This document shows, in pieces, positions 54,069 to 60,569 of a stretch of DNA of 64,000 bases (position 1 is its first letter; each line of letters starts with the position of its first letter). The notes beneath the pieces were generated by a model. It made no database searches, was not told the DNA's origin, and worked only from the letters and a program-made list of their open reading frames with translations. The translations under genes were made by a program, and so were the position numbers. The stretch lies in NCBI RefSeq assembly GCF_056712565.1, contig NZ_CM160072.1; one strand, 5' to 3'.

Positions 54069-55157
54069 ATGTCACCGCAGAATAACCACCTGCAGCGTCC
54101 GCCTGCTGCTGTGTTATACGCCGTTGAACTGGCAAAATTAAAACAAAATGATAACGCACCTTGCCCGCCAGGTTGGCAGTTAAGTTTGCCTGCGGCCCGT
54201 GCTTTTATCCTTGGCGACGAAGCGCAAAATATTAGCCGTAAAGTGGTGATTAGTCCCTCCGCTGTCGAACGTATGTTAGTCACTCTTGCCACCGGGCGCG
54301 GTTTGATGTTGGTGGGGGAACCTGGCACCGCAAAATCTCTCCTGTCTGAATTACTGGCAACCGCTATTAGCGGCGATGCCGGGTTAACCATCCAGGGCGG
54401 CGCATCTACTACTGAAGATCAAATCAAGTACGGCTGGAACTACGCCCTGCTTATCAACCATGGTCCGTCAACGGAAGCACTGGTCCCTGCCCCGCTTTAC
54501 CAGGGAATGCGCGACGGCAAAATCGTCCGTTTTGAAGAGATAACGCGTACACCGCTGGAAGTACAAGACTGTCTGTTAGGTATGCTTTCTGACAGGGTGA
54601 TGACGGTGCCGGAACTCACCGGTGAAGCCAGTCAGCTCTATGCGCGGGAAGGCTTTAATATTATTGCCACTGCCAATACCCGCGATCGCGGCGTCAATGA
54701 AATGAGTGCCGCGCTAAAGCGTCGCTTCGATTTTGAAACTGTCTTTCCGATTATGGATTTCGCCCAGGAGCTGGAGCTTGTCGCCAGTGCTTCGGCGCGT
54801 TTGCTGGCCCATAGCGGCATTCCGCATAAAGTGCCTGACGCGGTACTGGAGTTACTGGTCCGCACCTTTCGCGATCTGCGTGCCAACGGCGAAAAGAAAA
54901 CGTCAATGGATACACTGACAGCGATTATGTCCACCGCTGAAGCCGTGAACGTGGCCCACGCGGTGGGCGTCCGCGCCTGGTTTTTAGCGAATCGCGCAGG
55001 TGAGCCGGCCGATCTGGTGGACTGTATTGCCGGAACCATCGTCAAAGATAACGAAGAAGATCGCGCGCGCCTGCGCCGTTACTTCGAACAACGTGTTGCT
55101 ACACATAAAGAAGCTCACTGGCAGGCTTATTATCAAGCTCGCCACCGCCTGCCGTGA
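54069..55157 (+). CDS. yehL: MoxR-family AAA+ ATPase YehL
   Basis: 362 aa from ATG 54069; Walker A GEPGTAKS. Confidence 0.85.
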   Translation: MSPQNNHLQRPPAAVLYAVELAKLKQNDNAPCPPGWQLSLPAARAFILGDEAQNISRKVVISPSAVERMLVTLATGRGLMLVGEPGTAKSLLSELLATAISGDAGLTIQGGASTTEDQIKYGWNYALLINHGPSTEALVPAPLYQGMRDGKIVRFEEITRTPLEVQDCLLGMLSDRVMTVPELTGEASQLYAREGFNIIATANTRDRGVNEMSAALKRRFDFETVFPIMDFAQELELVASASARLLAHSGIPHKVPDAVLELLVRTFRDLRANGEKKTSMDTLTAIMSTAEAVNVAHAVGVRAWFLANRAGEPADLVDCIAGTIVKDNEEDRARLRRYFEQRVATHKEAHWQAYYQARHRLP

Positions 55158-55163
55158 GGAAAG

Positions 55164-57440: not shown

Positions 57441-58569
57441 ACTGAACGATCTTCTGACCACCCGTGAGCTACAACGCTGGCGATTAATTCTTGGCGAAGC
57501 GGCAGAAACGACGCTTTGTGGGCTGGATGACAACGCCCGGCAGATAGACCACGCGCTGGAGTGGCTGTATGGGCGCGATCCTGAACGGCTCCAGCGTGGT
57601 GAACGTTACGGTGGATTAGGTCGTTCAAATCTCACCACCCCTGAGTGGATCAACAGCATTCACACGCTGTTTCCGCAACAGGTGATTGAGCGGCTGGAAA
57701 GCGATGCCGTGCTGCGCTACGGCATTGAAGATGTGGTGACGAATCTCGACGTGCTGGAACGTATGCAGCCTTCTGAAAGCCTGCTACGCGCCGTTTTGCA
57801 CACCAAACATCTGATGAATCCCGAAGTACTGGCTGCCGCCCGCCGGATAGTGCACCAGGTTGTTGAAGAGATTATGGCGCGACTGGCAAAGGAAGTTCGT
57901 CAGGCTTTTTCTGGAGTACGCGATCGCCGTCGCCGCTCATTTATTTCACTGGCGCGAAACTTTGATTTCAAAAGTACTCTGCGCGCCAACCTGCAACACT
58001 GGCACCCGCAACACGGCAAGTTGTATATCGAATCCCCCCGCTTTAACAGCCGCATTAAACGCCATAGCGAACAATGGCAACTGGTCCTACTGGTTGATCA
58101 AAGCGGATCGATGGTTGATTCGGTGATCCACTCCGCAGTGATGGCGGCTTGTTTATGGCAGTTACCCGGCATTCGTACCCATCTGGTCGCTTTTGACACC
58201 AGCGTGGTTGATCTCACGGCAGACGTTGCCGATCCGGTAGAGTTATTAATGAAAGTACAACTGGGCGGCGGGACCAATATCGCCAGTGCCGTGGAGTATG
58301 GTCGGCAACTTATTGAACAACCTGCAAAAAGTGTCATTATTCTCGTGAGCGATTTTTATGAAGGTGGGTCATCATCATTGCTGACGCATCAGGTGAAAAA
58401 GTGTGTCCAGAGCGGCATCAAAGTGCTGGGGCTGGCAGCGCTCGACAGCAACGCAACGCCTTGCTATGACCACGATACGGCCCAGGCGCTGGTTAATGTC
58501 GGCGCACAAATAGCCGCAATGACACCGGGCGAGCTGGCTTCCTGGCTTGCGGAGAATCTTCAGTCATGA
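57433..58569 (+). CDS. yehP: von Willebrand factor A (VWA) domain protein YehP
   Basis: 378 aa from ATG 57433; MIDAS-like DQSGSM. Confidence 0.85.
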   Translation: MSELNDLLTTRELQRWRLILGEAAETTLCGLDDNARQIDHALEWLYGRDPERLQRGERYGGLGRSNLTTPEWINSIHTLFPQQVIERLESDAVLRYGIEDVVTNLDVLERMQPSESLLRAVLHTKHLMNPEVLAAARRIVHQVVEEIMARLAKEVRQAFSGVRDRRRRSFISLARNFDFKSTLRANLQHWHPQHGKLYIESPRFNSRIKRHSEQWQLVLLVDQSGSMVDSVIHSAVMAACLWQLPGIRTHLVAFDTSVVDLTADVADPVELLMKVQLGGGTNIASAVEYGRQLIEQPAKSVIILVSDFYEGGSSSLLTHQVKKCVQSGIKVLGLAALDSNATPCYDHDTAQALVNVGAQIAAMTPGELASWLAENLQS

Positions 58570-60569
58570 ATTCACTACGTCCGGAATTATTAGAACTGAC
58601 ACCACAGGCACTGACGGCGTTAAGCAATGCCGGTTTTGTTAAGCGCAGCCTTAAGGAACTGGAAAATGGCAACGTCCCGGAAATCAGTCATGAGAACGGC
58701 GCTTTAATCGCCACCTTCAGTGACGGTGTCCGTACCCAGCTGGCGAACGGCCAGGCACTGAAAGAGGCTCAGTGCACCTGCGGGGCCAGCGGCATGTGCC
58801 GTCATCGCGTGATGCTGGTGTTAAGTTATCAACGACTTTGTGCCACCGCCCAGCCTACGGAAAAAAAAGAAGAAGAGTGGGATCCGGCAATCTGGCTGAA
58901 AGAACTGGCTACCTTGCCCGATGCCACCCGCAAACGCGCGCAGGCGCTGGTCGCTAAAGGCATCACCATTGAGTTGTTCTGTGCGCCTGGCGAAATTCCC
59001 TCTGCCCGATTACCGATGAGCGATGTGCGTTTTTATTCCCGCAGCAGCATTCGCTTCGCACGCTGTGATTGCATTGAAGGCACACTTTGCGAACATGTCG
59101 TACTGGCTGTGCAGGCCTTCGTCGAGGCCAAAACTCAGCAAGCGGAATTTACTCATTTAATCTGGCAGATGCGCAGTGAACACGTCACATCATCTGATGA
59201 TCCGTTTGCCAGCGAAGAAGGCAAAACGTGTCGTCAATATGTTCAGCAATTAAGCCAGGCATTATGGCTGGGCGGGATAAGTCAACCGCCAATCCATTAC
59301 GAGGCCGCTTTCAGTCGCGCGCAGCAAGCGGCGGAACGCTGCAACTGGCGATGGGTGAGTGAATCGCTACGGCAATTGCGCGCCAGTGTTGATGCCTTCC
59401 ACGCCCGTGCCAGCCACTACCATGCCGGAGAATGCTTACGTCAGCTTGCGGCATTAAACAGTCGATTAAATTGCGTACAAGAGATGGCGCGGCGCGACAG
59501 TATCGGTGAAGTTCCTCCCATGCCGTGGCGCACGGTCGTTGGCGCTGGTATTGCCGGAGAAGCAAAACTTGATCATCTGCGGCTGGTGTCTTTAGGTATG
59601 CGTTGCTGGCAGGATATTGAGCAGTATGGTTTACGCATCTGGTTTACCGATCCCGACACAGGAAGTATTTTGCATCTTTCGCGTAGTTGGCAGAGAAGCG
59701 AACAGGAAAACTCACCGGCAGCGACGCGTCGGCTGTTTAGTTTTCAGGCTGGCGCACTGGCAGGTGGGCAAATTGTTTCACAAGCTGCAAAACGCAGTGC
59801 CGATGGCGAGCTGCTGTTCGCGACCCGTAACCGCTTGAGTGGCGTTGTTCCACTGTCGCCAGACGCCTGGCTAATGTTGAGCGCGCCGTTGCGCCAGCCG
59901 GGCATTGTGGCTTTGCGGGAATATTTACGCCAGCGTCCCCCCGCCTGCATACGACCAATCAACCAGGTCGATAACTTATTTATTCTGCCGATAGCGGAGT
60001 GTATTTCGCTCGGTTGGGATAGCAGCCGCCAGACACTGGATGCGCAGGTAATCAGCGGCGAAGGGGAAGATAATGTGCTGACGTTATCCCTTCCGGCATC
60101 TGCCTGTTCTCCTTTTGCCGTTGAACGCATGGCGGCGCTTTTGCAACAAACAGACGACCCCGTGAGCCTGGTTTCTGGCTTTGTCAGTTTTGTAGAGGGG
60201 CAATTGACACTGGAACCACGGGTGATGATGACAAAAACCCGCGCCTGGGCGCTGGACGCAGAAACTGCGCCTGTGGCACCGCTACCTTCTGCCAGCGTTC
60301 TGCCTGTGCCGTCTACCGCTCATCAGTTGCTGATGCGCTGCCAGGCGTTACTTATTCAACTGCTCCATAACGGCTGGCGCTATCAGGAACAGAGTGCTAT
60401 TGGTCAGGCAGAGTTGCTGGCGAATGACCTCACCGCGGTGGGTTTTTATCGGCTGGCACATGTGTTGGGACAATTTCGTAATACAGAAAGCGAGGCACGG
60501 GTAGAAGCAATGAATAACGGTGTTTTGCTTTGCGAACAATTATTCCCCATGCTTCAGCAACAAGGATGA
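58566..60569 (+). CDS. yehQ: SWIM zinc-finger protein YehQ
   Basis: 667-aa ORF; CTCGASGMCRHRV SWIM-like motif; ATGA overlap with yehP. Confidence 0.8.
   Translation: MNSLRPELLELTPQALTALSNAGFVKRSLKELENGNVPEISHENGALIATFSDGVRTQLANGQALKEAQCTCGASGMCRHRVMLVLSYQRLCATAQPTEKKEEEWDPAIWLKELATLPDATRKRAQALVAKGITIELFCAPGEIPSARLPMSDVRFYSRSSIRFARCDCIEGTLCEHVVLAVQAFVEAKTQQAEFTHLIWQMRSEHVTSSDDPFASEEGKTCRQYVQQLSQALWLGGISQPPIHYEAAFSRAQQAAERCNWRWVSESLRQLRASVDAFHARASHYHAGECLRQLAALNSRLNCVQEMARRDSIGEVPPMPWRTVVGAGIAGEAKLDHLRLVSLGMRCWQDIEQYGLRIWFTDPDTGSILHLSRSWQRSEQENSPAATRRLFSFQAGALAGGQIVSQAAKRSADGELLFATRNRLSGVVPLSPDAWLMLSAPLRQPGIVALREYLRQRPPACIRPINQVDNLFILPIAECISLGWDSSRQTLDAQVISGEGEDNVLTLSLPASACSPFAVERMAALLQQTDDPVSLVSGFVSFVEGQLTLEPRVMMTKTRAWALDAETAPVAPLPSASVLPVPSTAHQLLMRCQALLIQLLHNGWRYQEQSAIGQAELLANDLTAVGFYRLAHVLGQFRNTESEARVEAMNNGVLLCEQLFPMLQQQG

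Follow-up and report, generated by a model that had tools for sequence, protein, structure and literature searches.

The yehLMPQ genes of Escherichia coli are the fixed core of a five-family gene system with a MoxR-type AAA+ ATPase, a VWA protein and WGR-DUF4132 giants

MoxR rings and their VWA partners, which carry a metal ion-dependent adhesion site (MIDAS), seize an acidic residue of a client protein and remodel the client with ATP. Arrangements of this or a similar kind are Rea1 with Rsa4 or Ytm1, CbbQ-CbbO with Rubisco, NorQ-NorD, CoxD-CoxE, and the I and D subunits of chelatases, which work on the giant subunit H or CobN. E. coli has only two MoxR systems, yehLMPQ being one of them, and to our knowledge the YehL-type MoxR subfamily has gone some 20 years with no function assigned to it. 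This subfamily, one of seven among MoxR proteins, takes its name from YehL (PMC3893208). Here we analysed yehLMPQ at positions 54069-60569 of a 64,000-nucleotide stretch of an E. coli genome (contig NZ_CM160072.1 of assembly GCF_056712565.1; this whole stretch is hereafter the window). We found that the four genes are the fixed core of a five-family system, whose fifth family consists of very large proteins of the WGR-DUF4132 type, here called giants.

The yeh system belongs to the MoxR-VWA remodelling kind, with a partner set that is unique and rigid. It shares with the MoxR/VWA pairs (RavA-ViaA, CbbQ-CbbO, NorQ-NorD, CoxD-CoxE) an AAA_5/MoxR gene in an operon with the gene of a VWA protein with a complete MIDAS. 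It differs from them in having three extra obligatory partners (a protein of predicted TIKI fold with a HEAT solenoid, a protein with a SWIM domain and probable oligonucleotide/oligosaccharide-binding (OB) folds, and the WGR-DUF4132 giants), in the lack of a client enzyme nearby, and in the Walker B motif of YehL, which is an invariant Glu-Glu. Rea1/Midasin also combines an AAA_5 ring with a partner-gripping MIDAS domain, and in both systems these stand alongside large HEAT-repeat proteins; Midasin, however, is one polypeptide of 4700-4900 residues with six AAA modules, whereas the yeh ring and MIDAS are separate small proteins, and no UBL or MIDO ligand domain was identified in the yeh system. 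In class I chelatases (CobN-CobS-CobT, BchH-BchI-BchD) an AAA+ motor works with a VWA/MIDAS subunit on a third, very large subunit, an architecture like that of the yeh system, but the yeh giants are WGR-HEAT-DUF4132 proteins and not CobN/BchH homologues, there are two extra components, and the genes have no tetrapyrrole-pathway context. The vWA-MoxR ternary conflict systems (PMC7159879) resemble the yeh system in their core of MoxR and CoxE-like vWA proteins with additional large components, in their enrichment in Actinomycetota and Myxococcota, and in a vWA protein with an N-terminal extension before the VWA domain. Unlike them, the yeh system has no component of the VMAP, iSTAND or beta-propeller type, its vWA protein carries no effector domain, and the paper describing those systems makes no mention of SWIM, WGR, DUF4132 or YehL (PMC7159879). 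What was already known is the annotated locus and the named ATPase subfamily. In the searchable literature neither 'yehLMPQ' nor DUF5682, the family of YehM, appears in any paper and no function is reported, and we came across no account of the five-family system, a TIKI fold in DUF5682 or the OB/SWIM architecture of YehQ.

The genes of the system are arranged in the window as follows (PGAP, the NCBI Prokaryotic Genome Annotation Pipeline).

54069-55157, plus strand: yehL, AAA_5/MoxR-class AAA+ ATPase of the named YehL subfamily
55164-57440 (native start 55168), plus strand: yehM, DUF5682 protein, with a 7-bp deletion at 55188-55194
57433-58569, plus strand: yehP, VWA_CoxE protein with a complete MIDAS
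58566-60569, plus strand: yehQ, SWIM zinc-finger protein
45483-49271, plus strand: giant of the molR/yehF-yehH type with WGR-HEAT-DUF4132 architecture (Pfam WGR and DUF4132), 1262 aa, intact
49281-52912, plus strand: yehI, second DUF4132 giant, without WGR (Pfam DUF4132), labelled 'frameshifted' by PGAP

The first-pass annotation, made from the letters of the DNA, had described overlapping stops and starts at the last two junctions of the cluster, and the sequence bears this out. The overlap is 8 nt at yehM/yehP, where the yehM TGA lies at 57438-57440 and the yehP ATG at 57433, and 4 nt at yehP/yehQ, where stop and start are read together as ATGA at 58566-58569; yehL and yehM are separated by 10 nt. 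Both DUF4132 genes and a toxin-antitoxin module were located upstream, as had been stated, and the module is a zorO/OrzO-P locus. The description of a four-gene cluster was right in coordinates and order but too narrow, as the conserved unit also takes in the DUF4132 genes outside 54069-60569. The genes had been called backbone and not strain-specific, and indeed, of 5426 complete E. coli genomes, 5362 carry a match to the region 54069-60569, which spans 80% or more of the region in 5202 of them; in K-12 the genes are annotated as b2119-b2122. The region is 100% identical to a sequence of an E. coli resembling avian pathogenic E. coli (APEC) O1, and RefSeq annotates in it yehL, yehM, yehP and yehQ.

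The evidence for a five-family system comes from the gene neighbourhood of yehM across bacteria. A YehM profile was scanned against a collection of 100,044 species, with one genome per species, and at least 544 loci were found in the species-representative genomes. The best 80 of these at least 544 loci were fetched with 10-kb flanks, and synteny counts are given per 81 loci. The sampled loci belong to Gamma- and Betaproteobacteria, Myxococcota, Actinomycetota and Acidobacteriota, and thus span four phyla. Open reading frames (ORFs) matching the E. coli proteins were found for YehL in 81/81 loci, for YehP in 79/81 and for YehQ in 77/81, and YehL and YehP occur together in 79/81. Profiling of co-occurrence with DUF4132 genes, which had been suggested at the first pass, came out strongly positive, with DUF4132 proteins in 75/81 loci. 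Most cases in which YehP, YehQ or DUF4132 was missing were contig ends. The gene order L-M-P-Q was unchanged in the 81 loci, and one to five DUF4132 genes, usually WGR-DUF4132, immediately precede the four genes on the same strand; in Burkholderia they follow them. The median gaps are 17 nt between giant and L, 2 nt between L and M, and -4 nt at both M-P and P-Q. Five genes in an operon of this layout, with stops overlapping starts, are kept even in distant members of 31-34% identity, and a WGR domain was detected in 16 of the 17 sampled giants. All-against-all clustering of the flanking ORFs in these loci yielded no sixth conserved family, and yehK and yehR are limited to Escherichia and Klebsiella. 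In Escherichia the gap between giant and yehL exceeds 1 kb and holds yehK and zorO/orzO; judged by comparison of the loci this is a derived state, because the median gap over the loci is 17 nt. In Serratia and Variovorax, for example, giant and yehL overlap. At 50% identity the DUF5682 family falls into about 2250 clusters; plasmids seldom carry it (39/72,556 records), and it is essentially absent from phages.

Gene fusions add to this picture. In three metagenomic proteins of 1120-1180 aa (P0289, P0349, P0385), YehM and YehP are fused, DUF5682 being followed by VWA_CoxE in one polypeptide. The fusions form three separate clusters at 50% identity, and their existence argues that YehM and YehP act in physical contact.

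YehL and YehP have the sequence features of a motor ATPase and a metal-site partner. The assignment of YehL as a MoxR-type AAA+ ATPase held up in Pfam, where it scores 119.3 bits for AAA_5 (cut-off 22, E 1.7e-34). Walker A (GEPGTAKS), Walker B (VRFEEITR), sensor-1 (ATANTRD) and the arginine motif (KRRF) are invariant in 82 YehL homologues, and YehL is predicted from these motifs to be a catalytically active ATPase. The Walker B motif (54521-54547, residues 152-160) has Glu-Glu instead of the usual Asp-Glu, and this pair is invariant in the 82 sequences from four phyla. Among solved structures, the best sequence matches of YehL are the AAA domains of Midasin/Rea1 (E 7e-10), followed by the MoxR structure 2r44 and McrB. 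YehP, which had been described as a VWA protein with a DxSxS MIDAS motif, matches VWA_CoxE over 222/222 model positions (240.8 bits against a cut-off of 26.4, E 1.5e-71), and its MIDAS residues D222-Q-S224-G-S226, T281 and D307 are invariant in 79 homologues. YehP is presumed to be the adaptor of the YehL ATPase.

The first-pass annotation had left YehM as a large unknown protein. This is still true of the literature, which is silent on DUF5682, but a structural model now assigns the protein a TIKI/TraB fold with a HEAT solenoid. YehM matches DUF5682 above the Pfam gathering score (E 1.3e-96), and it was modelled by AlphaFold from 16 homologues with a predicted local distance difference test (pLDDT) score of 80.6. 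In the model, an alpha/beta domain of approximately residues 1-240 is followed by a HEAT/ARM-like alpha-solenoid, and the N-terminal domain has the TIKI/TraB/ChaN fold with a core of parallel beta-sheet. The TIKI superfamily is defined by a catalytic set of two His and two Glu together with a basic residue (PMC6254334). YehM has the invariant motifs G-x-R-H-H, L-I-E-G-P, R-E-x-x-M and G-G-x-H in the order corresponding to TIKI, and the catalytic candidates H10/H11, E34, R174-E175 and H201 are invariant and in the expected order, this correspondence being one of order and not of residue-level superposition. From the invariant His, Glu and Arg motifs in TIKI order we therefore predict hydrolase activity for YehM, as a protease or an esterase, with the fold taken from the model. 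Compared with the superfamily of TIKI, TraB, PrgY, ChaN and erythromycin esterase, YehM stands out in lying below the Pfam threshold, in the solenoid of some 500 residues to which the domain is joined, and in being encoded inside a MoxR-VWA operon. We know of no other members of the TIKI superfamily in such an operon context.

The remaining two families carry modules that point to nucleic acid. YehQ had been called a SWIM protein, and Pfam agrees, with a match above the gathering score (E 8.8e-8). The protein carries the CxCxnCxH signature. Of 75 YehQ homologues, 74 retain this first SWIM signature, while a second is found in only half. YehQ and the C-terminal 433 residues of the giant were modelled as one chain, joined by a 30-glycine linker, from genome-paired sequences (pLDDT 81.6). 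In the model, YehQ consists of the SWIM region, helices, two beta-barrel units of OB topology (approximately residues 330-560) and a terminal helical bundle. The top Foldseek matches are tandem-OB proteins that bind single-stranded DNA (ssDNA), namely LEF-3, Teb1 AB, CTC1, RPA70 DBD-A/B, POT1 and HIN. From the topology and the length of the alignments we infer that these matches belong to residues ~330-560 of YehQ, which would then be a probable RPA-like tandem OB fold. The first giant matches WGR (E 1.8e-15) and DUF4132 (E 5.7e-51) in Pfam, and yehI matches DUF4132 (E 1.4e-46). In a sequence search of the PDB the WGR domain of the giant matched that of PARP3. This was the only part of the giant to find a match, and the YehM and YehQ profiles and the single YehP sequence found none. 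The region before the DUF4132 domain is HEAT-like in the model; for the DUF4132 domain itself, which is rich in invariant polar residues, a structural search with the model found no convincing relative. In NCBIfam only far-sub-threshold matches (GvpN, MadB and a cobaltochelatase model) and no family name were obtained.

Regulatory data give a further hint of a link to DNA. The first giant, which is named molR in K-12, is listed as LexA-regulated with a known SOS box (PMC6590174, Table 1), and a candidate box is found in the window 8 nt upstream of the WGR-DUF4132 start codon.

45456-45475, plus strand: candidate LexA (SOS) box AACTGGATAAAATTACAGGG, with one mismatch to CTGT-N8-ACAG

The promoter region of the WGR-DUF4132 gene (45343-45482), which holds the putative box, shares 157 of 158 positions with K-12, compared with about 94% identity in the coding sequence, so that non-coding conservation upstream of this gene is unusually strong. 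Both yehL and yehM are derepressed in hns/stpA mutants, and an H-NS site lies in the intergenic region (PMC3686432). A promoter scan found no strong sigma-70 match for yehL, the sole good match (53842-53870) fitting the OrzO promoter, and an Rfam scan of 52800-61300 reported OrzO-P only, with no riboswitch or leader before yehL. In Deinococcus, the DUF4132 gene drA0166 (of the drA0165-drA0166 operon) and the WGR gene dr2173 are strongly up upon depletion of the DdrO repressor. Together, the link of the module to DNA damage is suggestive.

The Deinococcus data also bear on another explanation, in which the proteins would be a chaperone for metal or cofactor insertion of the CoxD-CoxE, NorQ-NorD or CobNST/BchHID type, and the AAA+-VWA pair would load a cofactor held by a ChaN-like YehM into the giant or into an unlinked enzyme. 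The old name of MolR, 'molybdate metabolism regulator', points toward metal, characterised MoxR-VWA pairs mostly mature metallo-enzymes (PMC7159879, PMC3893208), and the trio of AAA+ protein, VWA protein and subunit of 1100-1400 aa mirrors the class I chelatases. At the level of the proteins, YehP matches VWA_CoxE over the full model and, weakly, a cobaltochelatase subunit model (E 8.7e-4, far below the cut-off), ChaN is a haem-binding protein of the TIKI fold, and invariant His, Glu, Asp and Cys residues of YehM could bind metal. Yet no gene for a target enzyme or for cofactor biosynthesis is co-conserved in the 81 loci, and no CobN/BchH-type domain was detected in the giants. The WGR, SWIM and OB modules and the SOS control would have no obvious place in such a chaperone, and the molybdenum-metabolism genes of Deinococcus were unchanged while the DUF4132 and WGR genes were induced. 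We regard metal insertion as quite unlikely.

From the motifs, folds, synteny and fusions observed, we infer how complex formation, catalysis, DNA binding and role may fit together. We tentatively favour, with somewhat less than even confidence, a reading in which YehL, YehM, YehP and YehQ are the constant four-protein core of an ATP-driven remodelling complex of five families, with the giants as the variable fifth. YehL would form a MoxR-type AAA+ ring that hydrolyses ATP, as its motifs suggest. YehP would bind the ring and, by analogy with Rea1/midasin, CbbQ-CbbO and chelatase I-D, grip an acidic residue of a partner with its MIDAS. YehM, attached to YehP as in the fusions, would serve as a HEAT scaffold and, given its fold, as a TIKI/TraB-type hydrolase. 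YehQ, with SWIM and probable tandem OB folds, and the WGR domains of the giants may tie the machine to nucleic acid, the target most likely being single-stranded or broken DNA. The motor would remodel or load the DUF4132 giants and thereby gate the YehM hydrolase. The giants occur in one to five copies while L, M, P and Q are single-copy, which fits giants that act as specificity or sensor subunits. The most likely biological role is a response to damaged or foreign DNA. Of the E. coli genes, the first is counted among the SOS genes, and H-NS silences the promoter of yehL.

Several observations weigh against this remodelling complex and its link to DNA. For none of the five proteins does the searchable literature describe a phenotype, an interaction or an activity found by experiment, and none of them has a classical effector domain such as a nuclease or TIR. 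The module is flanked by unrelated housekeeping genes, none of them for repair or defence. Only for the giant of E. coli has LexA control been documented: there is no SOS box at the yehL promoter, and gamma/beta-proteobacterial and actinobacterial consensus patterns gave no consistent LexA sites upstream of the module in the 81 loci, so that SOS control is not shown to be ancestral. As for YehM, the Pfam family of ChaN, Cofac_haem_bdg, was found only below threshold and in two of five homologues (E 0.0037 and 0.074; 17.7 bits against 27.7), and the TIKI fold includes non-enzymes, since ChaN binds haem and PMT is without the catalytic residues. As for YehQ, the Foldseek matches to tandem-OB proteins cover about 240-250 columns with probabilities of at most 0.99 and weak E-values of 0.009-0.3. 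The OB assignment comes from a chimeric, linker-joined AlphaFold model for which the matched query residues are not reported, and OB folds also bind proteins and sugars.

A more specific version of the mechanism would be a DNA-directed machine for protein removal. When DNA is damaged or foreign DNA enters, WGR, binding DNA ends or breaks, and the OB folds of YehQ, binding ssDNA, would position the complex, and YehL-YehP would unfold or extract a DNA-bound protein for a YehM protease. We consider this version unlikely; if true, the machine would be a functional analogue of p97/Cdc48 with SPRTN/Wss1 in the repair of DNA-protein crosslinks. Alternatively, the same activity could be used as an abortive-infection trigger.

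Abortive infection leads to the explanation that shares the mechanism of the remodelling complex but commits to defence, namely a dedicated anti-phage or anti-plasmid immunity system in which nucleic acid of invaders is sensed by the WGR-DUF4132 paralogues, MoxR and VWA proteins are a switch that sets a threshold, as has been proposed for the vWA-MoxR ternary conflict systems, and the TIKI-fold YehM acts as effector protease. Tandem expansion (one to five copies) marks the putative sensor, which also evolves faster than the core, with ratios of non-synonymous to synonymous substitution (dN/dS) of 0.20-0.38 against 0.02-0.14. The system has a patchy distribution in which soil Actinomycetota, Myxococcota and Burkholderiales are prominent. 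H-NS silencing and repeated lineage-specific inactivation (yehH and yehQ in K-12; yehI, yehK and yehM in this strain) fit a costly accessory system, and a type I toxin-antitoxin locus adjoins the operon. Moreover, the TIKI-fold effectors RRSP and HopBA1 are toxins, and CoxE-type vWA proteins are the proposed ancestors of conflict-system switches (PMC7159879). Nevertheless, by profile comparison the yeh system matches no known defence system: the six proteins gave no match at E <=0.01 among 5027 PADLOC models (PADLOC-DB v2), and in Pfam the similarity to the bpMoxR model is sub-threshold (18.4 bits against a cut-off of 27). The absence of a VMAP, iSTAND or beta-propeller third component and of an effector fused to the vWA protein speaks against immunity too, as do the near absence of the system from phages, its rarity on plasmids and its housekeeping flanks in other taxa. 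In E. coli the genes have a fixed, near-universal position (5362/5426 genomes) and are not part of a variable island. Dedicated immunity is thus possible but doubtful in our view. At the first pass a remodelling or conflict role had been worded as plausible but unproven, and this wording remains apt, as the searchable literature reports no function and the proteins matched no known defence system.

In this strain the system carries several lesions. Compared with K-12, yehM has lost 7 bp at 55188-55194, one copy of a GGCATC(C) direct repeat, and translation from the native ATG (55168) ends after 20 codons. An ORF of 758 aa exists at the coordinates first given for yehM only because a substitute ATG (55164), out of frame in K-12, comes into frame after the deletion; it starts with MYERAVNCRHHSP instead of MSEPLIVGIRHHSP. 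The gene is thus frameshifted, and the change replaces the first conserved N-terminal beta-strand together with the family-invariant I6 and G8. PGAP labels yehM 'frameshifted', and it is a pseudogene in the identical APEC O1 sequence. The deletion allele is present in only 129 of 5426 E. coli genomes, 97.6% being without it, and is therefore a minor lineage-specific lesion. In addition, one A was lost from an A8 run at 49449 in yehI, and one base was lost at 53152 in yehK. With frameshifts in yehM, yehI and yehK, the five-family system is probably crippled in this strain. K-12 has lesions of its own. Its first giant is split into yehF and the pseudogene yehH, and its yehQ is 53 codons short through a GAG-to-TAG change (window positions 60414-60416; 18943-18945 of the K-12 locus L002). 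Within the first DUF4132 gene, roughly 380 bp (47068-47447) align poorly with K-12 yehH, with many small indels, and it is here that the K-12 copy is broken. The length of YehQ varies between 605 and 709 aa among E. coli and relatives in the protein database, and its C-terminus is therefore often altered.

Despite the lesions, the four core genes have low dN/dS values in the comparison with K-12: 0.020 for yehL, 0.064 for yehP, 0.107 for yehQ and 0.139 for yehM, next to 0.021 for metG, which indicates purifying selection. The DUF4132 genes have higher values, 0.20 for yehI and 0.38 for the WGR part (yehF), and so evolve faster than the core. These values bear directly on the explanation that the genes are a decaying remnant, a silenced relic acquired horizontally by E. 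coli, without current function and with an adjacency that merely reflects history. H-NS repression and the independent lesions in K-12 and this strain would agree with a relic, as would the G+C content of yehLMPQ, which is raised to 53-56% compared with 44-50% in the spacer and flanking genes and is consistent with an ancient horizontal acquisition; set against the flanks, the figures are 54-55% and about 50%. The metG/DUF4132/yeh region (45483-52912) is moreover the insertion site of the blaCTX-M-15 transposon TnMB1860 in sublineage L1a of sequence type 131 (ST131), where it disrupts DUF4132 genes in 184 isolates of this successful sublineage (PMC9334617), and the genes were deleted without comment in the genome-reduced strain DGF-298. 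However, dN/dS of the core stays at 0.02-0.14 across E. coli phylogroups, equal or close to that of metG, which means sustained purifying selection. Furthermore, the catalytic motifs are all intact, the yehM deletion is absent in the 97.6% of genomes given above, and the five-gene synteny is held across four phyla. A relic is highly improbable on this evidence.

The spacer between yehK and yehL holds the toxin-antitoxin locus zorO-orzO (53546-53957), with the following features.

53549-53638, minus strand: zorO, toxin ORF of 29 aa in a type I toxin-antitoxin locus
53884-53957, plus strand: OrzO-P antitoxin RNA (Rfam RF02083, 91.5 bits)

The ZorO sequence is MDTLTQKLTVLIAVLELLVALLRLIDLLK. The promoter match at 53842-53870 mentioned above is sigma-70-like and near consensus, and a terminator-like hairpin is found at 53932-53952. 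K-12 is without the zorO-orzO insert, and the 779-bp spacer is matched over 80% or more of its length in only 906 of 5426 genomes. About 250 bp of it (53290-53545) are unannotated, absent from K-12 and without a match in Rfam. Parts of the spacer occur two to five times per E. coli genome (median 2), so that it holds a repeated element.

Our analysis turns an unnamed gene group into a defined and testable hypothesis, with five families, a predicted hydrolase and three modules pointing to nucleic acid. Common strains are natural mutants of the system, K-12 in yehH and yehQ and the APEC O1-like lineage in yehI, yehK and yehM, and such lesions may be the reason why no phenotype has come to light. 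If the remodelling complex is indeed linked to DNA, the yeh system would represent a new kind of AAA+/MIDAS machine in bacterial genome maintenance or immunity.

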